Origin: an uncultured Fibrobacter sp.
GTDB taxonomy: Bacteria; Fibrobacterota; Fibrobacteria; Fibrobacterales; Fibrobacteraceae
DNA length: 64,000 bases
Assembly (NCBI GenBank): GCA_947306305.1
Contig: CAMZGI010000001.1
Span: 1,973-65,972 of the forward strand
Direction of reading: 5' to 3'
The notes beneath the pieces were generated by a model. It worked only from the letters and a program-made list of their open reading frames with translations. It had not been told where the DNA came from and did no database searches. Positions 3,918-43,450 of this stretch are shown here, piece by piece. The translations under genes were made by a program, and so were the position numbers. Within the stretch, counting starts at the first letter, position 1, and each line of letters starts with the position of its first letter.

Positions 3918-4158
3918 ATACGGGAAAATCGAGGGGGGCGAGTTCGTCTCCGCTCCGCTGAATCTGGAAGTTGACGGGCGCGTGATATGCAACGTGTTCA
4001 CCCGCCCGGATATACTTGGGCAGTTCGGGTATAAGCCCGTGCGTTCGGACGCGATGCCGCCGTTTGAGGACGGGCAATCCCTATTGTCGGAGTACTCCGA
4101 CGAGGGGGATTATATCCGCGAGTCGTTCACGGTGATTGACGGAGAGGGGGTGGACTGA
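3901..4158 (+). CDS. Small tail-fibre assembly-type protein
   Basis: LGQFGYKPV...PP motif common in small fibre-chaperone genes; coupled to neighbours. Confidence 0.45.
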   Translation: MAALTRYGKIEGGEFVSAPLNLEVDGRVICNVFTRPDILGQFGYKPVRSDAMPPFEDGQSLLSEYSDEGDYIRESFTVIDGEGVD

Positions 4159-5201
4159 TGCCGCTTGGAAGAAGCATAGTCAAGGGCCTGGTCTACACCA
4201 TCGACCTGAGCAAGATCGCCGACCGTGAAAACCCGCGAACGGTCGAGGCGCCGTTCAAGTTAAACGCCTACACGGAGCCAGTGATAGTAGACTGGGGAGA
4301 CGGAACGAGCGAGACGATGACTTCAGGCGCTTTCCCTGTTCATACCTACGCCGAAGGAATAGGGGACGTTTTTCGCGTAACGGTGCGGAACTCGACAGGG
4401 CATATTCCAGAAATGTCATTCTCGAACGACCAGAACGCGACAGTGGTACACAATCTGACGCTGGCGGTTACTTCGGTCGACCATTTCGGCGGCTGGACGG
4501 GCGGCGCAACAGTCGGCCTTGCCAACGCCTTCCGCAACACGGCGAATCTGCAATTCTGCGACCCGCATATATCGGGAGTAGCGAACTCGACCTCGTTTTC
4601 AAATGTTTTCAGCGGTTCTGGAATATCGCAACCGTTACACGCGCTGAATTTCGAGTTTTGCACACAGGCAACATATTTTTCCTCGTGTTTCAACGGGTGT
4701 GTCAATGCTATCGGTTCAACGCCGAAGCTTCCCGAATCGGCAATAGGAATTATTAGCGCGTTTCAGGGGTGTGTAAATTTGGACGGGGAGATCACGCCGC
4801 TACCGTCTTCGATAACCGCCGCGGGATATGCATTTTATAACTGCCGCAATTTGACCGGGAACTATCCGAGTTTTCCGAGCGCGACTGGTTCGCTGGCGTT
4901 CGCTTTTTACGAGTGTAACAAACTAAACGGAAAGATCCCGGATATTGCAGACGGAGTAACATCTATACAAAACACATTCTACCAAAACCGGGCGGCGTCC
5001 GCTTTCCCGGACAATATCGCGGCGAGCATTACAGACGTTCGGAACGCTTTTTATAATTGTCAAACGCTGAACGTATCGACCAACGCCGCGCCCGAATTAT
5101 GGGACACCGGGGACTATCCGAGCATATCTCAATCTTCCGGGTGCTTTTACGGGCTGACGAACCTCTCGAACTACGCCGATATTCCGAGCGGGTGGAAGTA
5201 G
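4158..5201 (+). CDS. PKD-like + BspA/DUF285-like leucine-rich-repeat adhesin (receptor-binding candidate)
   Basis: VDWGDG motif; ~23-aa repeats (AFxNCxNLxG); C-terminal LSNYADIPSGWK. Confidence 0.7.
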   Translation: MPLGRSIVKGLVYTIDLSKIADRENPRTVEAPFKLNAYTEPVIVDWGDGTSETMTSGAFPVHTYAEGIGDVFRVTVRNSTGHIPEMSFSNDQNATVVHNLTLAVTSVDHFGGWTGGATVGLANAFRNTANLQFCDPHISGVANSTSFSNVFSGSGISQPLHALNFEFCTQATYFSSCFNGCVNAIGSTPKLPESAIGIISAFQGCVNLDGEITPLPSSITAAGYAFYNCRNLTGNYPSFPSATGSLAFAFYECNKLNGKIPDIADGVTSIQNTFYQNRAASAFPDNIAASITDVRNAFYNCQTLNVSTNAAPELWDTGDYPSISQSSGCFYGLTNLSNYADIPSGWK

Positions 5202-5229: not shown

Positions 5230-5325
5230 ATGACCGAAAAAATCGCAATCGGTATTTTTATCGCGTTCGGGGTGGTTGTTATACTCGCGTGTTTTTTGGA
5301 TATTTGGGAGATGGAAAATGATTAA
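5230..5325 (+). CDS. 31-aa single-TM peptide
   Basis: MTEKIAIGIFIAFGVVVILACFLDIWEMEND; overlaps next start. Confidence 0.4.
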   Translation: MTEKIAIGIFIAFGVVVILACFLDIWEMEND

Positions 5326-5479
5326 CTTTCTTACGATCTGCAATACGATTATGACGTTCGGCATCTTGGTCGGCGTGTGGGTCGGCGTTCTTACCACGGA
5401 CACCGAACTCAAAGAGGCAATCTCGAAACTTAACAAATTTCTGAAAGAGAAAATCGACAATCTGACTGACGGAAAATGA
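5318..5479 (+). CDS. 53-aa single-TM protein
   Basis: GGAG RBS; hydrophobic N-half, charged tail. Confidence 0.5.
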   Translation: MINFLTICNTIMTFGILVGVWVGVLTTDTELKEAISKLNKFLKEKIDNLTDGK

Positions 5480-5538
5480 TTAGGATATTTGTTTTTCTGA
5501 CGCTTGCGCTTGCCCTCATCGGCGGCGCGGCGAAATAA
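5476..5538 (+). CDS. 20-aa signal-peptide-like micro-ORF
   Basis: ATGA coupling; MIRIFVFLTLALALIGGAAK duplicates the leader of the next gene. Confidence 0.3.
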   Translation: MIRIFVFLTLALALIGGAAK

Positions 5539-5560
5539 CGAAACAGGCGAGAGGGCGAAA

Positions 5561-6079
5561 ATGGTCTGTTTTTTGATACTGCTTGCGCTTGCCCTGATAG
5601 GCGGGTGCGGCGCGGATGTTCCGGTAGCGGAGCCTCTTGATTTTTCGGTCGGATTTCCGGCGCGTCCGGCTGCGGAAATGGAGCTTGGCGCATCGGTGCC
5701 GGTGCCGGAGGCTGAACCGGAGAAAGGAGAGTGCAGCGTGGCTTACGGTGTTTTACTGACCCCTTCGGCGGAAGATACGCTCGGCAGTATGATCTCGGCC
5801 GCCGATGTCGCGGTCGTCGAGTTTACCGCCGACTGGTGCGGCCCGTGCCAAGCTCTCCTGCCGGAACTTGAAAAACTCGCCGCCGAACACGAGGCGGTGG
5901 CGTTTTGGCAGGTCAATATCGACGCGAGGCCCGGTCTCTGCCAGGAGGCGGGCGGAATTGTGTCGCTTCCGACGGTCAAGGTCTATTCGGGGGTGAACGA
6001 GGTCGGGCAAGTGACGGGTAACTACCCTGTCCGGCTGCGGGGGCTGCTCCTTTCCGTTTTAAGGGAGAGAGGTGAGTAG
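5561..6079 (+). CDS. Thioredoxin-domain lipoprotein
   Basis: Signal peptide with lipobox-like LIGGC; FTADWCGPC active site; cis-Pro SLPT motif. Confidence 0.85.
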   Translation: MVCFLILLALALIGGCGADVPVAEPLDFSVGFPARPAAEMELGASVPVPEAEPEKGECSVAYGVLLTPSAEDTLGSMISAADVAVVEFTADWCGPCQALLPELEKLAAEHEAVAFWQVNIDARPGLCQEAGGIVSLPTVKVYSGVNEVGQVTGNYPVRLRGLLLSVLRERGE

Positions 6080-6606
6080 TGGGGGTCTTGACCGGGAGCG
6101 CGATTGCTTCGGCGGTGAGCCGGGGCGACATTGAGATTGACCCGTTCAATCGGCGTCAGCTTAATCCGAACAGCTACAACGTGAAGCTCGGACGGAAGCT
6201 GATCATCTATACGGAGAAGATACTGGACGTTAAGAATCCGAACGAATACCAGTATCTTGACATCCCGGAAGAGGGGATTGTCTTGGAGCCGGGACGCCTG
6301 TACCTGGGCGCGACGGTCGAAAGGACGTGGACGGATAAGTATGTTCCGATGATTGAGGGGCGGTCGAGTCTCGCACGGCTCGGCCTGTTCGTTCACGTCT
6401 CGGCGGGATTCGGAGACATCGGGTTCCGGGGGCATTGGACGCTGGAATTTTCCGCCGTCCATCCGATACGGATATACCGGAATACGGAGATTGCCCAGGT
6501 TTATTTCCATACGCCGGAAGGGAAGATTGACCGGCTCTACGCATCGAGGAAGTATCAGGACAATTACGGGGTGCAGCAGTCGCTTTCGTGGTTCGACTAT
6601 CTATGA
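6079..6606 (+). CDS. dcd: dCTP deaminase
   Basis: QLNPNSYN, EGRSSLARLGL, AGFGDIGFRGHWTLE, KYQ motifs. Confidence 0.93.
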   Translation: MGVLTGSAIASAVSRGDIEIDPFNRRQLNPNSYNVKLGRKLIIYTEKILDVKNPNEYQYLDIPEEGIVLEPGRLYLGATVERTWTDKYVPMIEGRSSLARLGLFVHVSAGFGDIGFRGHWTLEFSAVHPIRIYRNTEIAQVYFHTPEGKIDRLYASRKYQDNYGVQQSLSWFDYL

Positions 6607-6668
6607 CGCGGTTTTCCGTCCCGCAGGGGTGCGCGGGTTTATAATTTTTTCAATGAGAGGGATTGGCT

Positions 6669-7274
6669 ATGGCATCGAAAAAGAAGAATACGGCGGTGAA
6701 ACAGGAGCCGAAAGAGGAAAAGAAAACGGTTAAGCGGAAGCGTCCGTTTGTGAAGATTCTCGTTTACGGCGTGATAATCTTTTTCCTGTTTCCCGTCGCC
6801 GTGAACGGTATTCGGTATATCGGCGGGAAAGCGGTTGACTACTACCGGTTTATGCTCACGCCGAAGAAGATCATCCCGGATATTATGCCGGACTTCAAGA
6901 AGGAGGACGGGCGGAAGGACAGGGGAATAAACTGGTCGTTCGCCTCGGCGTATAACGGCGTCGGCAAGTGGGTGGAGGGGAACATTCCGGGCGGCGCGGA
7001 CGCTGCGACGGTCAAGGCTCTCGCCGACTGCTTCTACGACGCCGCCGACGCGGTGATTGACGGCCAGACCCCGACTCCGGGGCGGTCGCTCGCTTTTTTG
7101 AAAAAGAAGATTCTCCTTGCCGCCGACGATTCGTGGGAGGACTTTTTCAAAGGGCTGACGAACGAAGTGGCGGGTCTGGAGATCGGGTCGATGGACGAGG
7201 TTGCCGCTCTGTATGAGGTTATCGGGAACGCCTTTTCGGACGCCTCGAAGAAGCTGAAAGGGGGCGCGGAATGA
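6669..7274 (+). CDS. Membrane-anchored helical protein
   Basis: Basic N-terminus, one TM (ILVYGVIIFFLFPVAV), helical C-domain; ATGA-coupled to the protease. Confidence 0.65.
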   Translation: MASKKKNTAVKQEPKEEKKTVKRKRPFVKILVYGVIIFFLFPVAVNGIRYIGGKAVDYYRFMLTPKKIIPDIMPDFKKEDGRKDRGINWSFASAYNGVGKWVEGNIPGGADAATVKALADCFYDAADAVIDGQTPTPGRSLAFLKKKILLAADDSWEDFFKGLTNEVAGLEIGSMDEVAALYEVIGNAFSDASKKLKGGAE

Positions 7275-8236
7275 CTGAGCTTGTATGCGGCCTTGTCACG
7301 CTGGACGACGAGGGGCGGCTCGCCCAGGCGCGGGCGGTGGCGTCGGCGGTTCCGATTAAATATCTGTGGGATAACCCGGACGAACAGCCCATTATCGCCG
7401 ACGACTCGGTGTTTCAGGACTGGATTGACGAACGGATAGAATTTTTCGCCGCTCTGCGGAAGAAAGGGTACTGTTTCTATCCGTGGCTTATCAATCGGGA
7501 AGTCCCCGCGAAGTGGCGGCGGAGCGATATTGTCGTCTGGAACCAGGGGCCGATACCGTCGTGCGGATCGACCGCCACGGCTCACGCTCTGGAATACCAT
7601 ACGCTCATTTCGATTGCCGAAGGGAACCCGGTGGAATATACCGCGTTCAATCCGATATATTCCCATTACGGCGCGACGGGCGGTTGGACGAACCAGGGCG
7701 TTACGATGTTTCAGTCGGGCGAGCTTCTGAACGGGATCGGCGCGTTTTCGGTGGAGGATGTCGGCTCGGATAACCGGTCGACGCCCCGCGATTACAGCGA
7801 AAAGAAGCCGGACGCCGGGAAGTTCAAGGCGGCGATCTGCTATATCGCCGACAATACGCCCGATATGTGGTTCCGGTTGTCCCGCGCCTGCGTTCCGTTT
7901 GCGTTCGGCTCGGCGCAGTTTTACGCCTCGGCGGAGAAGGACAAAAACGGAATGGCCGCAGCCGGGAGGGTGACGACGGGAGGACACGCGGAATGTGCCG
8001 CGGGGTGCTGGACGGAAGTGAATGGAGAAGAGTATATCTACATTCAGAACTCGCACGGCGACATTTACGAATCGGACTCGACCGGCAAGCCGAAGTCGGG
8101 GTATTGGGTGACAAAGAGACAATGTGAGCTTTTCTGCTCGACTGCCGAAAACTACGGCAAGCCTTTTGTTCCCCTTCCCCGGTGCTGGCGGCAGGACGAC
8201 GCGAGTTTTGCGATGGAATTGAAATTGAAAGGATAA
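7271..8236 (+). CDS. Papain-like (C1 family) cysteine peptidase
   Basis: NQGPIPSC (Gln oxyanion/Cys), GGHA (His), IQNSHG (Asn) catalytic motifs in papain order. Confidence 0.8.
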   Translation: MTELVCGLVTLDDEGRLAQARAVASAVPIKYLWDNPDEQPIIADDSVFQDWIDERIEFFAALRKKGYCFYPWLINREVPAKWRRSDIVVWNQGPIPSCGSTATAHALEYHTLISIAEGNPVEYTAFNPIYSHYGATGGWTNQGVTMFQSGELLNGIGAFSVEDVGSDNRSTPRDYSEKKPDAGKFKAAICYIADNTPDMWFRLSRACVPFAFGSAQFYASAEKDKNGMAAAGRVTTGGHAECAAGCWTEVNGEEYIYIQNSHGDIYESDSTGKPKSGYWVTKRQCELFCSTAENYGKPFVPLPRCWRQDDASFAMELKLKG

Positions 8237-8244
8237 GGAGCGGT

Positions 8245-8667
8245 ATGTTCAATCTGTTGCTGTGGGCGGTTGAAGAAGGGGCGGCGGAATCGGTCGGCGC
8301 GGCGGGCGAAGCGGTCAGCGCAGTCGCACGCGAGAGGGAGTGGGGCTTGATCGTCCTGCTGGTCGTGGTCGTCCTGATATGGTTCAGAATGACCGTCTCA
8401 ACGGTGATGAAAGCGATGCGCGACCGGGACAAGGTGAGCGGCGAACGGGAGGAGCGGATGATCCGCGTCCTCGTCGGATTTTCGGAAACGATACCTTCCC
8501 TGGCAAGCGCGATCAACGATTTGCGAAGCTGGCTCGGCGAACGGTTCAAGGACGTTGACGAAGGGCTAGGCGAGATCAAGGCGAAGCAGGACTCGATTGC
8601 GGAGCAGGTGGACGGCCACGAAAAGCGGATAGGGGCGTTGGAGGAACATCAGAAGGATGGGCAGTAG
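8245..8667 (+). CDS. Holin/spanin-like membrane protein with coiled coil
   Basis: AAGGAG RBS; TM GLIVLLVVVVLIWF; C-terminal coiled coil ending HEKRIGALE. Confidence 0.5.
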   Translation: MFNLLLWAVEEGAAESVGAAGEAVSAVAREREWGLIVLLVVVVLIWFRMTVSTVMKAMRDRDKVSGEREERMIRVLVGFSETIPSLASAINDLRSWLGERFKDVDEGLGEIKAKQDSIAEQVDGHEKRIGALEEHQKDGQ

Positions 8668-8848
8668 CAAAGGGGAGAACATCTACAAGACGCCGGAAGA
8701 TATGGCGGAATGGATTGCGAAGGAAAGCGGAATGAAAGTCGATCCGAAAGCGATCCGAAAGGCGTCCCTGGAAGGGAATTTAATCAACGAAAACGGGGAG
8801 ATCGGATTTTACGAGCTTCTCGCGTATATGGCGGTGTTTGTGAAATGA
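8657..8848 (+). CDS. Small protein before TerL, putative terminase small subunit/DNA-binding
   Basis: Position; GEIGFYELLAYM resembles TerL N-terminal GKLNLPRYAAWL. Confidence 0.45.
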   Translation: MGSSKGENIYKTPEDMAEWIAKESGMKVDPKAIRKASLEGNLINENGEIGFYELLAYMAVFVK

Positions 8849-11214
8849 CGGCGGCGGCGGAGCTTAAACCCGGAATGGATATGGAGCCGAAAGCCTTTCT
8901 CAAAGAGGTTGAACGGACGGGGACTCCTACGCCCATTTCGGCCTATAAGCTCCGTATGCACGTCCGGGCGGCGCGTGAGAAGATTTCGGTTGTCAGCGGA
9001 AAGCTCAACCTTCCCCGCTATGCCGCTTGGCTTGTCGGGGAGTATGTGAGGCAGGACAAGAAGGCCGCGAACTACGAACGGCTCAAAGTGCTTGTCAAGG
9101 CGAAGGCCGCCGCCGAAGCCCGCGCCGCGTCGGAGATCGGCGAACTTCCCGAAGTCGTCAATCCCGAACGGAAAGAGAGATGCCGAAACGATTTTGGGCT
9201 GTTCTGCAAGGAATATTTCCCCTACGTTTTTGTCCTTCCCTGGTCGGACGATCACCTGAAAGCGATTAAGAAGATTCAGGAGGCCGTTCTTTTCGGCCTG
9301 CTTTTTGCGCTTGCGATGCCTCGCGGGAGCGGCAAGTCGTCCTTAACGAAAGTCGGATTGCTGTGGGCGGCCCTTTACGGTCATTGTCTGTTTTCGGTCT
9401 ATATCGCCGGGTCGAGCGAAAAGGCGCGGGACGGGCTTGAAGATATTAAGACGTGGATTGAAACGAACCCGCTTCTCGCCGAAGATTTCCCCGAAGTCTG
9501 TTATCCCGTTAAGAAGCTCGAACGGATAGCGACGCGGCAGAGGTCGCAGCGGTATAACGGCGAATTTACGCGGATTGACTGGACGAGCGATCATCTTGTG
9601 TTTCCGACGATTGCGGGGAGCGTGTGTTCGGGGTGCGTGATTTCCTCTTCCGGGATGAAGGGGAGCGAGATTCGGGGTCAGCAGATTTCGACCCCGGACG
9701 GGCGCGTTATGCGCCCTTCCCTGGCTCTGGTGGACGATCCGCAGACGACCGATTCGGCGTGGTCGAACTCCCAATGCGAGCGGCGGTTTCAGGTCATTAC
9801 GGGGGACATCCTCGGTATGGCGGGGCCGGGAAAGAAGATTGCCGGCCTGATAACGTGTACGGTTATCCGCGCCGGCGATTTGGCGGATATGATTCTCGAC
9901 CGCGAGAAAAACCCCGACTGGAAGGGGGAGCGGTTCAAGATGATGTATTCATTCCCGCGCAACGAGAAGCTGTGGGACGAATACAACCGGATTCGCGTCG
10001 CCGATTTGCGGAACGACGGAACGGGGAAAGCCGCGACCGACTTCTATATCGAACACCGGGAAGAGATGGATTTGGGGGCGCGTCCCGCCTGGGAGCAGCG
10101 TTACAACTTCGACGAGGTTTCGGCGGTTCAGCACGCGATGAATTTGAAGTTTCGCAACGAGGCCGCCTTTTTTGCGGAATACCAGAACGAGCCGCTCCGC
10201 CAGGAGTCGGAGAACGAGTGCCTCACCGAGTCGGAGATAATGGAGAAGGTAAACGGGACGCCGCATAAGAGAGTTCCCGAACACGTCCAACATCTGACCT
10301 GTTTTATCGACGTTCAGAAAGACGTTCTCTTCTGGATGGTCTGCGCCTGGGAGAGCAACTTCACGGGCTACATTATCGACTACGGAGCCTATCCCGATCA
10401 GAAACGGACGCGGTTCACGCTGCGGAGCCTGTCGATGCCGCTGTCGAAGAAATATCCCGGCAAGGGGCTGGAAGGGTGGCTCTATGCGGGACTGCAAGAC
10501 CTGACGGAAGATATACTCACGCGGGTCTATCACGGCGTTATCAAGGGCGCGGAATACAAGGTTTCGCAACTGATGATCGACGCGAACTGGGGCGACTCGA
10601 CCGACGTGATCTATCAGTTTTGCAGGCAGAGCCGGTTTTCTCAGCTTATCCTTCCGTCGCACGGGAAATATATCGGCGCGTCGTCGATACCGTTTTCGGA
10701 ATACAGGAAAGCGAAAGGGGACGTGTTCGGGTTTCACTATCTGATACCGAGCCTGAAAGGGAAACGGGCGATACGGCACGTTCTGGTTGACACGAATTAC
10801 TGGAAGAGCTTTGTGCAGGCGCGTCTTGCCACGCCGATGGGGGACAAGGGATGCCTTTCGCTCTACGGTCACGAACCGACAGCCCACATTATGCTTGCCG
10901 AACAGCTTTCGGCGGAGTATTTCGTGCCGGTTACGGCGAAAGAGCGCGTCGTCAATGAATGGAAGCTGAAACCGGGAGCCTACGACAACCATTGGCTCGA
11001 TTGCCTGGTGGGCTGTGCGGTTGGCGCGAGTATGCTTGGCGCGAGCCTGAAAACCGTCGCCGATCCGAGGGCGTTCAGTTCGTCGGTTCAGGCGGTGAGT
11101 TTTTCGGAAATGCAGAAAGCAAGGCGCGAGGCGAAACAGAACGAGGAAGCAAGGGACGACAGGCCGGTGAGTTTTTCATCGTTGCAGAAGAGGAACGGGA
11201 GAAGCGATGGATAA
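8845..11214 (+). CDS. Terminase large subunit (GpA-like)
   Basis: Walker A MPRGSGKS, Walker B LVDDPQ, nuclease FIDVQ, MIDANWG, DNHWLDC; precedes portal. Confidence 0.92.
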   Translation: MTAAAELKPGMDMEPKAFLKEVERTGTPTPISAYKLRMHVRAAREKISVVSGKLNLPRYAAWLVGEYVRQDKKAANYERLKVLVKAKAAAEARAASEIGELPEVVNPERKERCRNDFGLFCKEYFPYVFVLPWSDDHLKAIKKIQEAVLFGLLFALAMPRGSGKSSLTKVGLLWAALYGHCLFSVYIAGSSEKARDGLEDIKTWIETNPLLAEDFPEVCYPVKKLERIATRQRSQRYNGEFTRIDWTSDHLVFPTIAGSVCSGCVISSSGMKGSEIRGQQISTPDGRVMRPSLALVDDPQTTDSAWSNSQCERRFQVITGDILGMAGPGKKIAGLITCTVIRAGDLADMILDREKNPDWKGERFKMMYSFPRNEKLWDEYNRIRVADLRNDGTGKAATDFYIEHREEMDLGARPAWEQRYNFDEVSAVQHAMNLKFRNEAAFFAEYQNEPLRQESENECLTESEIMEKVNGTPHKRVPEHVQHLTCFIDVQKDVLFWMVCAWESNFTGYIIDYGAYPDQKRTRFTLRSLSMPLSKKYPGKGLEGWLYAGLQDLTEDILTRVYHGVIKGAEYKVSQLMIDANWGDSTDVIYQFCRQSRFSQLILPSHGKYIGASSIPFSEYRKAKGDVFGFHYLIPSLKGKRAIRHVLVDTNYWKSFVQARLATPMGDKGCLSLYGHEPTAHIMLAEQLSAEYFVPVTAKERVVNEWKLKPGAYDNHWLDCLVGCAVGASMLGASLKTVADPRAFSSSVQAVSFSEMQKARREAKQNEEARDDRPVSFSSLQKRNGRSDG

Positions 11215-11407: not shown

Positions 11408-12870
11408 TGTTTGTTCTTAACGGCGACGCCGGTGACTTGAATGTAAGTGTCGGGCGGGCAGTTGCGGTTCCGCCCTCTGGCCGCGCTGTTCGTCCGGCAC
11501 GTTTTTCCGAAAACGCCGGTATCGTCCGGGCGCGGTACGACTCGGCGATGACGACCCCGGAAAACGCGAGACATTGGAGGCTGACGGATCCGTTTTCGGC
11601 TGACGCGGCGGCGAATCCCGCCGTGAGAAAGATACTCCGCGAGCGGGCGCGTTATGAGATTGCCAATAATACCTACGCGAAGGGGCTGGTGCTGACCTAC
11701 GCCTCGGACACTATCGGCACGGGGCCGCGCTTGCAGCTTTTCGGCGCACCCTCGGAGAAGTGGGAGAACCGCCTGGAAAGCGCGTTCGGCGATTGGGCGG
11801 AAGAGACCGGGCTTGTCGAAAAGCTCACGACGATGGCGCAGGCGAAAGTGGGGGACGGCGAGGCTTTCGGGCTTCTCGTGCTCAATCCCGACCTGGCGGG
11901 GCCGGTGAAGTTCGAGCTTGTGCCGGTCGAGTGCGACCGGGTATGCGCCAGCTATGAAATGTTGCCAAGTCCGAACAATGTGGACGGGGTTATAATCGAC
12001 TCTGTGGGCAATCCGGTCTCATACGAGTGTATGAACGAACACCCAGGAAGTCAGAATTGCGCTTCAGCCGCTCCGGTATGGGATCGGGTTTCGGCACGCT
12101 GGATGGTGCATTGGTTCCGCAAAGACCGTCCCGAACAGCATCGGGGCGTATCGGAAATATCCTCCGCGCTTCCGCTTTTCGCTCAGCTTCGGCGTTACAC
12201 CCTTGCGACGATTGCGGCGGCGGAAACGGCGGCTGATTACGCGGCGATCCTTTACACCGACAATCCCGCGACGCAAACGGCGGTTAAAGCCGTCCCGTTC
12301 GATATGGTTGATATTACCAAACGGACGATGACGGTTCTGCCGGACGGGTGGAAGATGGGGCAGTTCAACCCGGAACAGCCCGTAACGACCTACGCGGAGT
12401 TCAAGCGGGAGGTTTTGGGCGAGATTGCGCGGTGTCTGCAAGTTCCGGTCAACGTCATTTCGGGCGATTCGTCCCGGCATAACTACGCTTCCGGGCGGCT
12501 CGATCACCAGACGTATCACCGGGCGATACGGATTAACCAACAATCCTGCTCGCGGGCGATACTCAACCGGGTATTCACGGAATGGCTGGCGGAGTATTCC
12601 CTGGCAAACGGATTCTCGCCCGGCAAGTTCGCCGATGTGAGGCCGTGCTGGATGTACGACGGATTTGAACACGTCGACCCGAAAAAAGAGGCCGACGCCC
12701 AGGCGGTCAGGCTTGCGAATATGTCGACGAGCTACGCCGCCGAATACGCGAAACAGGGACGAGATTGGGAAGTCGAGTTCCGGCAGATCGCAAAGGAAAG
12801 GGAATTGATGGACGAGCTTGGGCTTGCGCCCGCAGACGTTCAGACAAGCGGAGATACAGAAGATGAGTGA
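11407..12870 (+). CDS. Portal protein, lambda family
   Basis: LRERARYEIANN, DGEAF, RPEQHRGVS, GDSSRHNYASGR, HVDPKKEA. Confidence 0.93.
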   Translation: MFVLNGDAGDLNVSVGRAVAVPPSGRAVRPARFSENAGIVRARYDSAMTTPENARHWRLTDPFSADAAANPAVRKILRERARYEIANNTYAKGLVLTYASDTIGTGPRLQLFGAPSEKWENRLESAFGDWAEETGLVEKLTTMAQAKVGDGEAFGLLVLNPDLAGPVKFELVPVECDRVCASYEMLPSPNNVDGVIIDSVGNPVSYECMNEHPGSQNCASAAPVWDRVSARWMVHWFRKDRPEQHRGVSEISSALPLFAQLRRYTLATIAAAETAADYAAILYTDNPATQTAVKAVPFDMVDITKRTMTVLPDGWKMGQFNPEQPVTTYAEFKREVLGEIARCLQVPVNVISGDSSRHNYASGRLDHQTYHRAIRINQQSCSRAILNRVFTEWLAEYSLANGFSPGKFADVRPCWMYDGFEHVDPKKEADAQAVRLANMSTSYAAEYAKQGRDWEVEFRQIAKERELMDELGLAPADVQTSGDTEDE

Positions 12871-14824
12871 CGAATTGTTTTTTGACGGCAAGGTGGACTT
12901 GGTGGAGTTTTCCGGCGAGTCCGGCACCGAAAACAAAGTCCCGACTTTCACGATGACCGCATATACCGGAATTCCGATTCATCAGAGGAATTTTTCCAAT
13001 CCGGTAGTGGTTGACCTGGCGGGTATGGAAATCACGCAGCGGATTCCTATTCGCCTCGACCATAACCCGGAACAGAGGATCGGTCATACGACAGAGGTTA
13101 TCGTCGCAGACGGGCATTTGATAGCCAACGGGCTTATCTCGCACGACAACGAGTTTTCACGGACGGTTGCGAGTTCGGGTAAACTTGGGTTTCCGTGGCA
13201 GGCGTCCATCGGGGCGTATGTCACGCAGAAGGAGTATATCCCCGAAGGAAAGACGGTTGAGGTGAACGGCGCGGTTTTTGAGGGGCCGCTGACCGTTGCC
13301 CGGAAAAGTAACTTGAAGGAGATCAGTTTCGTGGACTACGGGGCTGATCCGAACACCGCCGCGATTGTGGCGAAGGAGACCAATGAGATGGATGATAACA
13401 CCAAAGTTATCGAGCCGGAGACGGTTGACACGGCGGTAACGCCCGTTCAGGCAGCCGAACCGGCTGAACCGGTGCAGGCCGCCGATCCCGCACCGGCTAT
13501 CGACATTCAGGCGCAGCGGGAAGAGTATGCCCGCGAGCTTGAACGTATCGGCAAAATCCGCTCCGTTGCGATGCCGGGGACTGACGAGCTTCAGGCCCAG
13601 GCCGTGCGCGAAGGGTGGACGCCGGAAAAATTTGAACTGACGATGCTCAAAGCGGTTAAGCCCCAGGCTGCTCCCGCTCCGGCGATTCACGCCAAAGAGG
13701 ATCGTGAGTTTAACCAGCGCACCGGCGAGATTATCGCCCTGCGCTCCTGCGGGCTTTTCTCGACGAAAGACGAGAAGAAGTATTCCGACCAGGAATTGAC
13801 CGCCGCCGACGATCACGCCCGGTGCGGCCTGCGCGAGTATTTTGAACTCTGCGCGGGAATGGGCCGTCATCAGCACCTTCCGAACGCACGGCAGGACACC
13901 CGCGAATGGCTCCACGCGGCGTTTGACGCGACTTCCCTTCCGGGGATTCTGTCGAACAACGCGAACAAGGTTCTTCTGCAGGGGTATGAAGCCGTTGACG
14001 ACTGCTGGCGCGAGTGCTTCAAGGTCGGCGCGGTTTCCGATTTCAAGGTTCATACCCGGTATCGGATGAACTCCGACTTTGTGTTTGAGAAGGTTCCGCG
14101 AGGCGGCGAGCTTAAACACGGGAAGGTTTCGGAAGAGTCCTACACCCAGAAGATCGACACCTACGGGATTATGTTCAGCCTCACCCGTCAGATGATTATT
14201 GACGACGACCTCGGTGCGCTGTTCGATATTCCGTTCCAGATCGGTCTCGGCGCGGGACAGGCGATTTCGGACGCGATTTGGGGGCTGGTTCTCGATCCGG
14301 CCCTCACCGGCAACGGCAAGTTTTTCAGCCCTGGGAACGGCTCGTATCTTGCGAACAATCCGCTTTCGATCAACGGGCTTACCGCCGCCGAAGTCGTGTT
14401 CCGCAAAAAGACCGGCCCGAACGGACGGCCCATTGTTGCGCGTCCTGAAATTCTGCTCGTTCCGCCTGAGCTTCTGACCCAGGCCGAGCTTCTGATGACC
14501 GCCACGATGGTGAACGAAGTCACCCCGTCGAATAAACCCTCCCCGAACAAGAACCCGCATCAGGGGAAATACAAGGTCTGCTGCTCGCCGTATCTGTCGA
14601 GTTCGGCTCTTACGGGCAGTTCGACGACCGCGTATTACCTGATTGCGAACCCCGTCCGTATTCCGTCGTTCGAGATTGCGTTCCTGGGCGGTATCGACCG
14701 TCCGACCGTCGAACGTGCGGAAGCCGACTTCAACACCCTCGGCGTTCAGTTCCGGGGCTATCTCGACTTCGGCGTGAAGGAACAGGATTATCGCGGCATC
14801 CTCAAAGTTGCGGGTGACGCCTGA
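12863..14824 (+). CDS. Fused prohead protease + major capsid protein
   Basis: N-terminal LDHN...IGH, WQASIG, EISFV.GAD protease motifs; AP-rich linker; C-terminal capsid (FSLTRQMIIDDDLGA, YLDFGV...DYRG). Confidence 0.88.
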   Translation: MSDELFFDGKVDLVEFSGESGTENKVPTFTMTAYTGIPIHQRNFSNPVVVDLAGMEITQRIPIRLDHNPEQRIGHTTEVIVADGHLIANGLISHDNEFSRTVASSGKLGFPWQASIGAYVTQKEYIPEGKTVEVNGAVFEGPLTVARKSNLKEISFVDYGADPNTAAIVAKETNEMDDNTKVIEPETVDTAVTPVQAAEPAEPVQAADPAPAIDIQAQREEYARELERIGKIRSVAMPGTDELQAQAVREGWTPEKFELTMLKAVKPQAAPAPAIHAKEDREFNQRTGEIIALRSCGLFSTKDEKKYSDQELTAADDHARCGLREYFELCAGMGRHQHLPNARQDTREWLHAAFDATSLPGILSNNANKVLLQGYEAVDDCWRECFKVGAVSDFKVHTRYRMNSDFVFEKVPRGGELKHGKVSEESYTQKIDTYGIMFSLTRQMIIDDDLGALFDIPFQIGLGAGQAISDAIWGLVLDPALTGNGKFFSPGNGSYLANNPLSINGLTAAEVVFRKKTGPNGRPIVARPEILLVPPELLTQAELLMTATMVNEVTPSNKPSPNKNPHQGKYKVCCSPYLSSSALTGSSTTAYYLIANPVRIPSFEIAFLGGIDRPTVERAEADFNTLGVQFRGYLDFGVKEQDYRGILKVAGDA

Positions 14825-26461: not shown

Positions 26462-28165
26462 ATGAAAATAACCGATTTTAAAATCTACCTCATTAACCTC
26501 GACCGCAGACCTGACCGATACGAGAGTTTTTTGAAAAGCGTCGAACCGCTCGGCCTGCCGGAAATTGAACGTGTCTCGGCGGTTGACGGAAAAGCCGTTG
26601 AACTGCCCAAAGACTGGCGGAACGGCTCACCGGGCGGATGGGGGTGCTTAAAGTCGCATTGGAATATCATCGAAAAAGCCTATGCCGAAAACATCTCGTA
26701 TATTATGATCTTTGAGGACGACGCGGAGCTTCTTGCCGACCGCGAGGCTCTCGATCAGACCCTTGCCGAACTGCCCGAAGATTGGGAACAATTCTATCTG
26801 GGATGTCAGCATTTCTACCAGTCAAAAAAACCGCCTGTCCGAATATCCGATCATCTTGTTATCCCATATAACGCTAACAGGACGCACGCGTACGCCTTAT
26901 CGCGCACGGGTATGGAGAAAGCTCTTGGGCTGTTAAACGATTATCCTAACTGGCAGAAGGGGTGGCATATTGATTGGGCTTATGGCTCCCTGCACGAAAG
27001 CGGAAAAATTAAAGCCTATGCGGCCTATCCGCCTCTGTTCGGTCAGGCTGCCGGATTAAGCGATATTAACGGCGCGGATAATAATAAACTCGCATGGAAG
27101 CCGGTTAAAATCCGCGACACCCGGACAGGAAGCGTTGCGGTTGTTTCAGATCGTGTAGGTTACGGCAAATTCGATATAAAGATTCCCGATATTTTTGACC
27201 GTGAAATTTACGACGGGTTCTTCGCTCACGCGCCTAGCGAGGTGAAGATCATCGTCAGCGAGCCGACAGAAGTTTTCGCCGCGCACGGGGTTAAGGAGAC
27301 TTCCTGGAAACCTTCTTTTGCGGTTATCGACGAGAAGAGTATCGGATGGGTTACAGCTAAGGGTGAAACGACTCAAACTTATGCTCTCGAACCGGGCGAG
27401 CATACCCTCGAATTTGTCACTAGCGACAACCGCGCCGCTCATACCTACTGGATTTTCCGGCCGCTTTCCCGACTCCCGTATCGTGAAGGTGCGTTATTTG
27501 AAATTTTCTCGAATGGAAAATGCAATAGAAAATGCCCGTGTTGTAATCAGCAAAAGACTATGGCGGATATGCCGGAGTATGAATATACTGCCCAAAACGC
27601 GGAGAGGCTTGTTTCCGTCTTGACCAGGAACATCAGCCTGATTTTCAGCGGCGGGGAACCGTCCCTGCTCGGCATCAAAGAGTGGACGCCGATTCTTGAC
27701 GTGTTCCGAAACTCCGGCAAAATCGACCGGATTGAGATTACAACCAGCAACGACAATGAAAACTGGATCGCGTTCGCGTTAAAGAATTTCGACAAGATTC
27801 ATCTTTCGCACCGCCCGTCAATGGGCTGGACTCTGAACGACCGTCCCGATTACCTGAAAGGTGTTGAAGTGTGGAATACCGACAATCATTGTATCTGGCC
27901 GGTGACGCGGTTCAGCGAATTTCCTAAATGCTGCTGCACCAACGTCGGAGTTCACGCCGCGATATTCGGAGACACCGTTGCTCCGTGCGTTCTCGCTCAC
28001 GAGCTTGCGATTAGAAAGCCCGATACCGTTCCCGCCCCAATCCCGCTTGAAGATTATTTCACCGGGAAGAGGTCGTTTACTCCCATCGGAACATACGAGG
28101 CTTGCCGGTGGTGCGTCAACAATGACCGTTACCGGGAGAAAACAAGGAAAGTTCCGACTGTGTAG
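26462..28165 (+). CDS. Glycosyltransferase family 25 fused to radical-SAM-like domain
   Basis: INLDRRPDR, SAVDG, GCLKSH, IFEDDA, HAYALS (GT25); CNRKCPCC, SGGEP and C-terminal Cys cluster (radical SAM/SPASM-like). Confidence 0.8.
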   Translation: MKITDFKIYLINLDRRPDRYESFLKSVEPLGLPEIERVSAVDGKAVELPKDWRNGSPGGWGCLKSHWNIIEKAYAENISYIMIFEDDAELLADREALDQTLAELPEDWEQFYLGCQHFYQSKKPPVRISDHLVIPYNANRTHAYALSRTGMEKALGLLNDYPNWQKGWHIDWAYGSLHESGKIKAYAAYPPLFGQAAGLSDINGADNNKLAWKPVKIRDTRTGSVAVVSDRVGYGKFDIKIPDIFDREIYDGFFAHAPSEVKIIVSEPTEVFAAHGVKETSWKPSFAVIDEKSIGWVTAKGETTQTYALEPGEHTLEFVTSDNRAAHTYWIFRPLSRLPYREGALFEIFSNGKCNRKCPCCNQQKTMADMPEYEYTAQNAERLVSVLTRNISLIFSGGEPSLLGIKEWTPILDVFRNSGKIDRIEITTSNDNENWIAFALKNFDKIHLSHRPSMGWTLNDRPDYLKGVEVWNTDNHCIWPVTRFSEFPKCCCTNVGVHAAIFGDTVAPCVLAHELAIRKPDTVPAPIPLEDYFTGKRSFTPIGTYEACRWCVNNDRYREKTRKVPTV

Positions 28166-28501: not shown

Positions 28502-29055
28502 ACCTCATCTCCCCAACAATCCCAACCTTCCGCCTCTCTTCGCGCAAACAGTTCTATCCGTTTCGTCCCCGCTCCGAACAGTCTTTCGATCCGTTCCATA
28601 ACCTCAAACGGTTTGACGGAATGACCGCGCCGGGGGGCGGTTACGATCTGCGGAACCGTCTTATCGGCCGACTTGATGTGGCCGCGCATCCCCAGGAGAC
28701 AAAGCTCGGCGTTCGCTTTGGTATATGACCCCATCCCGGCAATCGGCTGACCGTCTTTCCTCACTTTCACCCAGGTGAACGCGCACGTCTTATACTTGAA
28801 CCCCCAGGCGTCCATCACTTTAAAGGCGTTCGGCAGACACGGCATCGTGATCCACAAAAACAGGGCGCAGTTTTTGTTCCGCAGGCGTTTAATCACCGGC
28901 CCCATCGCGCAAATTTCCTCGACGCTCATCGTCTTGTAGTGCTTTTCCGGGCAGAAGTTACCGCCGTGCTTTCCTTTGCCCCATAGATATGCCCAGGGGG
29001 GATCGGCGTAAATTATATCGTAGGAGTGGGCTGTTTGGAATATATCAATCTTCAT
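28498..29055 (-). CDS. MT-A70 family DNA adenine methyltransferase
   Basis: IYADPPW, LFLW, WGFKYKT, HSVKP, IELFAR, GWDCWGDE. Confidence 0.92.
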   Translation of the reverse strand: MKIDIFQTAHSYDIIYADPPWAYLWGKGKHGGNFCPEKHYKTMSVEEICAMGPVIKRLRNKNCALFLWITMPCLPNAFKVMDAWGFKYKTCAFTWVKVRKDGQPIAGMGSYTKANAELCLLGMRGHIKSADKTVPQIVTAPRRGHSVKPFEVMERIERLFGAGTKRIELFARREAEGWDCWGDEV

Positions 29056-30001
29056 CCTGCCCCCTCATAATTTTAACCGGGTCGAACCCGTCGTAGCCTT
29101 CCGGGAATGGGATAAGGCGGTCTGCTTTTTCCAAAAATTCGTCCCGCTCCCGGCAATTCTCCTGTTTCCATTCGTCCGGTATAAACTTGAACAACCGGCG
29201 CATAATCGTCTTGTGTGATGATAAGTCTTTGTCAGGGAGTTCCGTTTTCAGCACGGCATAAATGACATTCAGAAGCAAATACGATGCTGCCATCTGATCC
29301 CGCAAAGAAAACGTGATCGCCTCCTTCTGATATTCAACGAACGCCCGCCAGGTCAGCGGGAACAGGACTTTAATCATATCAAAGATAATATCGGCGTAGG
29401 CTCTGATCTCCTTTTGCGCGTGCTTGTCGCAACGGAGGCGGAGGAAGTTCAAAAGGTTTTTCAGATCGATCTTCCAGTATGCTTGTGTGAATGTCGAAAG
29501 AGGAAGGTCTTTCCGCGCCTGCTCCCGTGCGACTCCCATTTTAATCCGCTCGTCATACAGTTCCCGCGCCGCCTTGTGGAACGCCTCTTCCTTTTCGGAG
29601 AGCATTTCCGCGTCCTCTTCGCTTAACAGCCCATCGCTGCCTTGCTTGTTGTTCTGATCTTGCAGTCTCCATTCCGTCGCTTCATACATCTGGTCGATTG
29701 CAACCGAGTAGCGGGTCGAGTATTCGTTGATACTCGCCGTTCGATGCCGCACCCATTGTCTCCATACGTCCATCGGAACGTAAACCATAAACTTTAATTC
29801 CGCCATTTCAAACGGACTTGTGTGACCGTGGCGCATAAGATAGCGGATAAGGTGTTCGTCCTTGCTGGTGTCTTTCTCACTTTTGCCGTAGCTCGTGCGT
29901 GCGGCTTCGGCTATGTCGTGATCGCTCCCCATAACATCGCAGAGCATAATCCATCCCTGACTGTTGACGGGGATTTTTCTTCCAATATAATAGTTATTCA
30001 T
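29045..30001 (-). CDS. thyX: FAD-dependent thymidylate synthase
   Basis: HTSPFE, RQWVRHR.ASINEYSTRY, REQAR, LRCDKHAQ.EIR. Confidence 0.95.
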   Translation of the reverse strand: MNNYYIGRKIPVNSQGWIMLCDVMGSDHDIAEAARTSYGKSEKDTSKDEHLIRYLMRHGHTSPFEMAELKFMVYVPMDVWRQWVRHRTASINEYSTRYSVAIDQMYEATEWRLQDQNNKQGSDGLLSEEDAEMLSEKEEAFHKAARELYDERIKMGVAREQARKDLPLSTFTQAYWKIDLKNLLNFLRLRCDKHAQKEIRAYADIIFDMIKVLFPLTWRAFVEYQKEAITFSLRDQMAASYLLLNVIYAVLKTELPDKDLSSHKTIMRRLFKFIPDEWKQENCRERDEFLEKADRLIPFPEGYDGFDPVKIMRGQDED

Positions 30002-30017
30002 AGCGGCCCTCAACGCC

Positions 30018-30266
30018 TGTTGGGCGTTTTGTTGGGCGCAGGTGGTTTTGGATGCTTAAAATAAGGTGTTGCGTTACTCCGGTAGGGGGTATTTGAGCCT
30101 CTTGCGGTATTACCCGCGAGAGGTCTTTTTTTATGCGTTTTCCTTGTTTTTAAGCGTCAAAACGTCCTGCGCGGTGTTGGGTGATTTAACGTAAATTAAC
30201 GTGAATTAACGGTCTTTGTTGGGTGAAATGTTGGGTGATCGGCGCAAAGCCGAAAATCGCCCAACA
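30018..30266. other. attP: tRNA 3'-end core with arm-type and Xis-type repeats
   Basis: Core ACT-CCGGT-AGGGGGT-A (30076-30091); TGTTGGG(C/T)G at 30018, 30030, 30175, 30217, 30229, inverted at 30258; TTAACG x3 at 10-bp spacing (30186/96/206); adjacent to integrase. Confidence 0.8.
30095..30132 (+). terminator. Rho-independent terminator after att core
   Basis: CCTCTTGCGG/CCGCGAGAGG stem followed by T7. Confidence 0.75.
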
Positions 30267-42883: not shown

Positions 42884-43450
42884 CTATCTCACCCTCAACG
42901 TCCAATACATCCCCGAAAACCCGACTCCGATAATCCTGCCGCCTCCGAGAAGGATAGCACGGTGTCCGCTACTGTTTAACCACATATTGACGACCGCTTC
43001 GGGGCTTCTAACCCCCATAGCGATACATTCCCTGCCGCCGATTCCGTAGGCGTGCTGAAAGCCGTTGCTCTGCATCCAGAGGGAATGATTATCACAGCCC
43101 AAACAGAGGGTCGAGTCCGCTTCCAGGGCCGGGAGACCGAGGGCTTTGCGGTGCGCGTTCACGAGTTCGATCACCCGCAAACAAAACGGCTTGATTTCAA
43201 TGGGCGCGATCTGCGGCGTTTCGTCTGCCGGTTCAGCCGGAGTAGCCGGTTCCTCCGCCGTTTGGGCTGTTTCCAGGGAGGGATTAGCCTCCTGTTTCGC
43301 CGGAGCTTGATTGCGCTGACATTGGCCGTTGGCGCATTGTGAGGTGTAGTTGTAGCCGAACCAGGGCCAGTAGTAGTACTGGGCATAGGCGGTTTCGGAG
43401 ATAATGCTAGTCAGCGCAAGTGCGAGAATGAACATCAATGTTCGTTTCAT
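42884..43450 (-). CDS. Secreted CAP/SCP-domain protein
   Basis: Signal peptide; VNAHR..GLPAL, HS..M, ECIA, WLNSSGHRAIL, IGVG. Confidence 0.88.
   Translation of the reverse strand: MKRTLMFILALALTSIISETAYAQYYYWPWFGYNYTSQCANGQCQRNQAPAKQEANPSLETAQTAEEPATPAEPADETPQIAPIEIKPFCLRVIELVNAHRKALGLPALEADSTLCLGCDNHSLWMQSNGFQHAYGIGGRECIAMGVRSPEAVVNMWLNSSGHRAILLGGGRIIGVGFSGMYWTLRVR

Follow-up and report, generated by a model that had tools for sequence, protein, structure and literature searches.

An exported partner, a leaderless papain-like peptidase and a membrane protein form a conserved candidate lysis cassette in an uncultured ruminant-gut phage

The 64-kb stretch analyzed here (hereafter the window, contig positions 1973-65972) belongs to a contig of 66,279 bp whose first 55 bases are repeated at its end. 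This 55-bp terminal overlap indicates a complete circular phage genome of ~66.2 kb, of which ~2.2 kb falls outside the window. Between a BspA-type leucine-rich repeat gene of the tail-fiber region (4158-5201) and the gene of the large terminase, TerL, which marks the beginning of the head genes, the window carries a tight, co-directional string of genes on the + strand. A preliminary description, based on the sequence of positions 5230-8667, interpreted this string as an endolysin-free lysis module in which an exported thioredoxin and a papain-like protease would together open the envelope of a planctomycete. Our analyses retain an unusual protease-centered candidate module, but neither the planctomycete rationale nor the partnership with the thioredoxin. 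The conserved unit is formed by three adjacent genes:

6663..7274 (likely start ATG 6669), + strand: partner protein of 203 residues, with one transmembrane (TM) segment and a helical C-terminal domain
7271..8236, + strand: leaderless papain-like (C1-like) cysteine peptidase of 321 residues, assigned from fold, family profile and catalytic residues
8245..8667 (open reading frame, ORF, listed from GTG 8182; probable ATG at 8245, just past AAGGAG), + strand: protein of 140 residues with a TM segment and a coiled coil

By its modeled fold and mechanism class, the 321-residue protein belongs to a distant C1-like, phage-specific family outside Pfam, with predicted peptidase activity. The AlphaFold2 model, for which nine homologs were used as input, reached a predicted local distance difference test (pLDDT) value of 89.2 and a predicted template modeling (pTM) score of 0.90, and displays the two lobes of papain. 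The top Foldseek matches in the PDB were all C1 peptidases (chymopapain, cathepsins K, S, B and H, and xylellain; E ~1e-7, probability 1.00), with target-normalized template modeling scores of up to 0.68; those against the Atlas were 0.60-0.73. When a profile of 54 family members was compared with PDB sequences, only C1 peptidases were retrieved (ficin, 1.6e-4; xylellain, 4.9e-4), in alignments spanning the Cys motif and the His...Asn-Ser-(Trp/His)-Gly motifs of xylellain. The Cys-His dyad, the oxyanion Gln (six positions before the catalytic Cys) and the Asn motif (here NSHG) of family C1 are all present. Q92, C98, H239 and N260 are invariant among nine close homologs and kept in 70, 75, 76 and 69 of 77 family members, respectively, and from these conserved residues the protease appears catalytically intact. 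The designation as a C1 cysteine protease in the preliminary description is thus appropriate for fold and mechanism class, but the protein stays below the Pfam threshold: no Pfam family matched it, including Peptidase_C1 (PF00112) at its gathering threshold, and just two of the 54 family members tested reached PF00112 (E 0.0025). NCBIfam gave no match either, PHROGs only a faint one to "peptidase", and phmmer against PDB sequences a chance match only.

The family is nearly confined to viruses. An exhaustive profile search retrieved 113 clusters at 50% identity, and the ESM-Atlas neighbors of the protease, by features and by shape, fall in clusters that are 85-100% viral, some of them automatically named "Peptidase C1A". 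A search with the close protease alignment recovered a single contig from IMG/VR and had no match in 185,579 species genomes. The protein shares with papain, the cathepsins and xylellain of Xylella fastidiosa (PDB 3ois) the fold, the Gln-x5-Cys spacing and the His and Asn-Ser-(Trp/His)-Gly motifs, and its N-terminal helical extension is reminiscent of the C1 pro-region. In contrast to these enzymes, to which it is 12-20% identical, it has no signal peptide, belongs to a phage-specific clade and is accompanied by a dedicated exported partner. Hydropathy and sequence inspection revealed no TM or signal segment in the protease, either in the window or in the relatives examined.

Four longer homologs of the protease (P0017, P0023, P0047 and P0029; 508-708 residues) contain insertions of ~300-350 residues with an HNH_3 endonuclease domain. 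The insertions are located after the catalytic His in P0017, P0023 and P0047 (WAHA|C...GN|T) and at GGQ|C...AN|S in P0029, two different conserved active-site motifs being hit. They begin with Cys and finish in Asn followed by Thr or Ser, and are therefore intein-like. Such insertions in active-site motifs suggest a gene that phages cannot lose.

Directly upstream, the stop codon of the partner gene overlaps the start codon of the protease gene as ATGA. The partner has a basic N-terminal tail, a single TM segment and then a helical extracytoplasmic domain of ~100 residues, in line with the TM-anchored helical protein, translationally coupled to the protease, that had been noticed before. A fold search with this helical domain yielded no PDB match better than E 1.6. 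Nevertheless, the domain is shared with the proteins at the same place in more distant relatives, namely that of L096, which has a TM anchor (hhalign probability 95.7%, E 1e-8), and that of L097, which has a lipoprotein signal (89.6%, E 1.9e-6). The mode of export varies, with a TM anchor in the window and in L096, a lipoprotein signal (LFGC) in L097 and a Sec-type signal in L099 and L102, so that the partner carries an export signal in every lineage examined.

When the protease was modeled together with partner residues 96-203, the complex scored 0.85, against 0.17 for the best of three controls; in a benchmark of this score, 58 of 80 solved complexes and 2 of 110 mismatched pairs attained that mark, counts that are rough because our own alignments were used. 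The runs agreed in at least 94% of the contacts, with a partner pLDDT of at least 90. In the model, the interface is composed of the N-terminal helices (33-65), residues 117-120 and the C-terminal tail (307-320) of the protease, and of the conserved TPGRS...LKK...W..FF.GLT helices (138-169) of the partner, leaving the catalytic cleft outside the interface. The partner is therefore predicted to dock the protease, a binding that the model supports and does not show. The idea of a Tat-type hitchhiking export of the protease through a KRKRPFVK stretch in the partner was discarded, as this motif is not conserved.

The third member, of 140 residues, consists of an acidic N-terminal tail, one TM segment, a basic juxtamembrane stretch and a C-terminal coiled coil; from the charge distribution, its orientation is probably N-out/C-in. 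Homologs are located directly 3' of the protease gene in L002, L005, L007 and L095, and the only family match is a weak one to phrog_1009, of unknown function.

The gene order up to TerL is the same in four close relatives (L002, L006, L007 and L094). In contrast, those with 50%-29% protease identity (L005, L095, L096, L097, L099 and L102) keep just the trio together; in all, the trio recurs in L002, L005, L007, L094, L095, L096, L097, L099 and L102. Its position varies: in the window it precedes TerL, in L097 and L102 it separates the cement gene from the head-tail-joining genes, and in L099 it is found amid tail genes. Such variation fits a self-contained cassette.

The remaining genes of the string are as follows:

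5230..5325, + strand: micro-ORF of 31 residues with one strong TM segment (hydropathy 3.06 over 19 residues) and no family match exceeding noise, candidate of holin/antiholin type
5318..5479 (ORF listed from TTG 5276), + strand: protein of 53 residues with an N-terminal TM segment and an amphipathic/coiled helix, from hydropathy and sequence
5476..5538, + strand: hydrophobic micro-ORF of 20 residues, putatively coding, whose start overlaps the preceding stop as ATGA
5504..6079 (likely start ATG 5561), + strand: exported thioredoxin with lipobox and WCGPC motif (PF00085, E 1.7e-16)
6079..6606, + strand: dCTP deaminase (PF22769, E 1.1e-39; phrog_1663, E 1.3e-42)
8657..8848, + strand: soluble protein of 63 residues, conserved (homologs in L002 and L007) and possibly packaging-related
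8710..11214 (true start probably near 8860), + strand: TerL of gpA type (PF20454, E 7.5e-25; phrog_38, phrog_15)

The alignment of TerL with its relatives begins at residue ~39-55, and its identity to any of 50,697 GenBank phage records is at most 28%. The 63-residue protein directly precedes it and has no family match in Pfam, PHROG or NCBIfam. Between the deaminase and the partner gene, a terminator-like hairpin and a TATAAT sequence (6620-6650) were no better than in shuffled sequences.

The three micro TM peptides of the preliminary description do exist as ORFs, two of them (31 and 53 residues) with a strong TM segment and the third, of 20 residues, hydrophobic. The 53-residue protein overlaps both adjoining micro-ORFs and has a homolog in L002 (75% identity) and a 53-residue counterpart in L094, where a 49-residue TM ORF is the analog of the 31-residue one. 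The 31-, 53- and 140-residue proteins present the features expected of holins, i.e., small size, at least one TM segment, a charged tail and proximity to a candidate lytic enzyme. Regarding the "holin/spanin-like" label given earlier to the 140-residue protein, the TM segment and the coiled coil are real, but neither a holin or spanin family match nor an o-spanin-type gene accompanies them. No ORF with a lipobox was found in or after 8182-8848, so that a two-component spanin is not formed there; the sole lipoprotein is the thioredoxin (172-191 residues), four genes upstream of the 140-residue protein. The 20-residue micro-ORF shares LALALIGG with the thioredoxin signal peptide located 85 bases further 3'; it may be what is left of a duplicated signal peptide, or else represent a third small membrane peptide.

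The thioredoxin itself is as initially described, a lipoprotein candidate with a WCGPC motif: it obtained 60.5 bits against PF00085 (cut-off 23.5), and its N-terminal hydrophobic segment ends in the lipobox IGGC, lipidation being predicted. It also matches TIGR01068 (E 4.9e-16) with 58.7 bits, under the equivalog cut-off of 96.8, and scores best as a classical thioredoxin and weakly as TlpA or DsbE. The N-terminal export signal is kept in all four sequences compared (window, L002, L006 and L094). The lipobox position is occupied by a Cys in three of them (window, IGGC; L006, LCGC; L002, IFGC, the last recognized by eye after the regular expression missed it), while L094 has a TM anchor without a lipobox. 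Export is credible from these features, although the n-region is devoid of Lys and Arg if the start is ATG 5561. As in TlpA, ResA and DsbE/CcmG, a thioredoxin fold would thus be exported and tethered by an N-terminal anchor or lipid, and the L006 homolog shares the TlpA-type WCVPC motif; in contrast to the setting of TlpA, ResA and DsbE, no electron supplier of the DsbD/CcdA type is encoded in the phage.

The gene following the thioredoxin, omitted from the module in the preliminary description, encodes a dCTP deaminase (PF22769 over the full-length domain, 136.4 bits with a cut-off of 27). It is a gene of cytoplasmic nucleotide metabolism, not a lysis gene, and begins with a GTG that overlaps the stop codon of the thioredoxin gene. 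In L006, a phosphoadenosine phosphosulfate (PAPS) reductase is inserted between the two: there (L006:321-1543), the lipobox thioredoxin, of the TlpA type with WCVPC, overlaps the start of the PAPS-reductase-family gene, an odd pairing of an exported reductant with a cytoplasmic enzyme of a thioredoxin-dependent type. Thioredoxin and deaminase accompany the trio in close relatives only, no thioredoxin being seen in the fetched stretches of the trio-bearing L096, L097, L099 and L102. The co-occurrence of thioredoxin and protease, proposed earlier as a check, therefore fails beyond the close relatives, and a thioredoxin that is coupled to cytoplasmic nucleotide or sulfur enzymes instead of to the trio is not supported as a lysis partner. 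Both genes are accessory neighbors of this phage lineage, outside the core. Thiol chemistry regulates some phage lysis proteins, such as the signal-anchor-release endolysin Lyz of P1 and the disulfide-bonded Rz-Rz1, and it is tempting to speculate that the thioredoxin might keep the catalytic thiol of the protease reduced outside the cytoplasm.

Endolysins were searched for in the complete genome by scanning all called ORFs, including those outside the window, with Pfam and PHROGs, the lists for the early block comprising the best 25 matches each, and by searching the whole bin in six frames with Phage_lysozyme, Amidase_2, SLT and Amidase_3. No lysozyme, amidase, M15/M23, CHAP or NlpC domain of the phage contig was among the matches listed; any early-block Pfam match beyond these would have an E above about 1e-4. 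The six-frame searches gave nothing on the phage contig, whereas SLT and Amidase_2 do match other contigs of the bin. The lack of a canonical endolysin noted at first for the window is thus, among the matches listed, confirmed and extended to the ~2.2 kb beyond it. These matches include no further lysin family, numerous ORFs are without any family, and the TM neighbors of the protease match no holin family. In the protease, no lysozyme, amidase, M15, M23, CHAP or NlpC match was obtained with Pfam, PHROGs, PDB or NCBIfam, and it thus has none of these known muralytic domains.

The location of this protease amid exported and membrane proteins in a late operon makes an envelope-directed, probably lytic, role the best reading. 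As the peptidase has no signal and its partner is placed outside the cytoplasmic membrane, the two would meet only after this membrane has been breached, as in holin-dependent endolysins. This logic, together with the position in the late operon, with small TM proteins on either side and no other lysin among the matches listed, suggests a holin-dependent lysis cassette in which a papain-like peptidase replaces the muralytic endolysin, an interpretation whose support is circumstantial and which we put forward tentatively. In such a cassette, the peptidase would fold in the cytoplasm and, at the end of infection, the 140-residue protein and/or the 31/53-residue pair would permeabilize the inner membrane. 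The peptidase could then enter the periplasm, where the partner, tethered on the outer side of that membrane, would capture it with its helical domain. The captured peptidase would cut a load-bearing peptide component of the envelope, either the cross-links or stems of peptidoglycan or envelope tether proteins. What the analyses show are the genes, the fold, the intact catalytic residues, the conservation of the trio, the export signals of the partner and, among the matches listed, the lack of known endolysin families; the steps of the scheme, with their timing, the substrate and lysis itself, we infer. Some BFVD structural neighbors of the protease are phage proteins named "Peptidoglycan binding-like", "N acetylmuramidase", "Lysin A" and "Endolysin"; these names are only a lead toward a lytic role.

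The arrangement resembles the S/R/Rz-Rz1 cassette of lambda and the t/e genes of T4, in which a leaderless enzyme is likewise flanked by small single-TM proteins among late genes; as in lambda, it is located just upstream of the terminase. In topology, the partner is similar to the T4 holin T, with a short cytoplasmic tail, one TM segment and a periplasmic domain. In contrast to these cassettes, the enzyme does not belong to the lysozymes, transglycosylases, amidases or known endopeptidases, the TM proteins have no holin family, an o-spanin is lacking, and nothing in those systems corresponds to the exported protein with its predicted binding to the enzyme. Virus-encoded C1 proteases that break down host structures late in infection, releasing the progeny, do exist, as exemplified by the baculovirus viral cathepsin V-cath with chitinase. 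V-cath is among the BFVD structural neighbors of the protease, but it differs in having a eukaryotic host, in being a proenzyme of the secretory pathway and in liquefying tissue instead of breaching a cell envelope. The known cysteine-peptidase lysins (CHAP, NlpC/P60 and Amidase_5) belong to cluster II of the papain-like enzymes (PMC10318531, PMC8586454), whereas the papain/cathepsin branch forms cluster I (PMC10318531). They share with the window protease the papain-like superfamily and Cys-His catalysis; they are phage lytic enzymes, and their thiol can need reducing conditions. They are, however, minimal alpha+beta domains, while the window protease has the full two-lobe architecture of papain and the cathepsins, with Gln19 and Asn175 equivalents and the NS(H/W)G motif.

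Several observations weigh against a lytic peptidase. We know of no member of the papain/cathepsin branch that cuts peptidoglycan, and the window protease has no cell-wall-binding domain. The 31-, 53- and 140-residue proteins match no described holin or spanin family in Pfam or NCBIfam, PHROG giving only weak matches of unknown function, and no small lipoprotein gene of o-spanin type is present. Upstream, the cassette is interrupted by cytoplasmic metabolic genes, so that gene position alone is weak evidence. No homolog of the protease was found among 50,697 GenBank phage records. In addition, a divergent endolysin could hide among the many ORFs without a family, just two proteins having been folded.

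Cleavage of peptidoglycan peptides would be new for the papain/cathepsin branch. The stronger proposition, a new class of phage lysis in which a holin-released, leaderless C1-like enzyme, docked by an exported partner, replaces the endolysin in an uncultured lineage of gut siphoviruses, we regard as somewhat doubtful. The catalytic types of endolysins form a short and well-catalogued list, which is mined for antibacterials. If the proposal is true, the protease family, with more than 100 clusters at 50% identity, nearly all of them viral, would represent a new catalytic type of endolysin together with a new accessory component, the papain/cathepsin-type lysin and its exported docking protein extending phage lysis by a chemistry and a level of regulation that are both new; at least some of the "Peptidase C1A" proteins without a role in viromes would be explained. 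What is truly new is this conserved set of an exported partner, a leaderless C1-like peptidase and a TM protein: even without a function in lysis, a conserved and phage-specific complex of an envelope-targeting protease with an exported partner would be new biology.

The trio could instead act on the envelope in a non-lytic manner, through the late destruction of a receptor or surface protein, or as a substitute for spanins that cuts tethers between outer membrane and wall while another enzyme, unrecognized or provided by the host, breaks the wall. The exported partner, the leaderless protease and the TM protein all indicate the envelope as the site of action, no spanin is recognizable with Pfam or PHROGs, and enzymes of the C1 branch normally cut proteins, not peptidoglycan (PMC10318531). 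However, a leaderless enzyme gains the periplasm only when the membrane is breached, i.e., at lysis, and no second lytic enzyme is among the matches listed for the complete genome. We consider this explanation unlikely.

A canonical but highly divergent endolysin could also be encoded elsewhere in the genome, the protease being an accessory for anti-defense or host takeover. Dozens of ORFs lack a family, and the limits of the search mentioned above (two folded proteins and early-block family lists of the best 25 matches) leave room for such a gene. On the other hand, none of the four commonest lysin families was recovered from the phage contig in six frames, the early-block Pfam matches beyond those listed would be weak (above about 1e-4), and the membrane and periplasm context of the protease speaks against a cytoplasmic accessory role, making this scenario rather improbable.

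A morphogenetic enzyme maturing head or tail proteins would explain the location among structural genes, since the trio lies by the cement and head-tail-joining genes in L097 and L102, by tail genes in L099 and by TerL in the window, and the intein-like insertions in the active-site motifs of some relatives are as found in indispensable phage genes. Nevertheless, we give this role little credence. The predicted binding partner is exported in every lineage and the other neighbor is a membrane protein, the position of the protease is not fixed relative to portal or capsid, and one half of the capsid gene product is already similar to an S78 prohead protease. The exported partner, the unfixed position and this S78-like N-terminal half together render a head-maturation role unlikely. 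The "capsid" protein in question (12818-14824, + strand; 668 residues) is an apparent fusion of an N-terminal half similar to the S78 (HK97-type) prohead protease (ESM feature score 0.96) with a C-terminal Phage_capsid_4 half.

Finally, the peptidoglycan-independent exit proposed in the preliminary description, in which the thioredoxin would reduce the cystine cross-links of a proteinaceous planctomycete wall and the protease digest it, can draw on a thioredoxin with an export signal and a classical WCGPC motif, on a real papain-like protease, on the lack of an endolysin among the matches listed and on the adjacency of thioredoxin and trio in the window, L002, L006 and L094, but it is barely credible given a thioredoxin without an obvious electron source, translationally coupled to the dCTP deaminase here and to the PAPS reductase in L006 and not seen beside the trio of the more distant relatives, given that planctomycetes are now known to possess peptidoglycan (PMC4432640), and given a Fibrobacter bin from goat or bovine gut with no pointer to planctomycetes.

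The phage contig was binned with a 70%-complete Fibrobacter metagenome-assembled genome (MAG), and the RpoB on another contig of this bin is 87% identical to that of Fibrobacter sp. UBA7003 and 80% identical to that of a Fibrobacteraceae MAG. At least three studies of goat and bovine gut metagenomes contain contigs with ~96% DNA identity to the module (the runs X5-X20, whose word shares were small, are left out of this habitat evidence), and the habitat is the ruminant gut. Bin and habitat thus point away from the planctomycete host assumed at first, which is unsupported. The link to Fibrobacter comes from binning alone, and this host is putative. The GC content is 52.8% in the phage and 48% in the rest of the bin, the phage DnaN is 22-28% identical to that of Fibrobacter, and no words of at least 22 bases are shared between the phage contig and the rest of the bin, and hence no match to a spacer of clustered regularly interspaced short palindromic repeats (CRISPR) exists there. 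The region flanking the integrase contains no match resembling an attachment (att) site, and the other 295 Fibrobacterota genomes lack the protease family, except for two weak matches, and contain no related prophage. The tRNA-like attP core proposed within 30018-30266, CTCCGGTAGGGGGTA, was found in 0 of 100 genomes of the same genus and in one other of 295 of the same phylum; either this reading of the attP core or the Fibrobacter host is wrong.

Other genes of the window merit mention. The thymidylate synthase ThyX (29045-30013, - strand) and the dCTP deaminase (6079-6606, + strand) constitute a pair supplying deoxythymidine triphosphate (dTTP), the first lying in the early block and the second in the late operon. 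The tail block ends with a fusion of a GT25 glycosyltransferase and a radical-SAM domain (26462-28165, + strand; Pfam and PHROG). In the early block, a protein of 188 residues (42884-43450, - strand) has a CAP/SCP (YkwD-like) domain (PF00188, E 1.6e-9), which is unusual for a phage.

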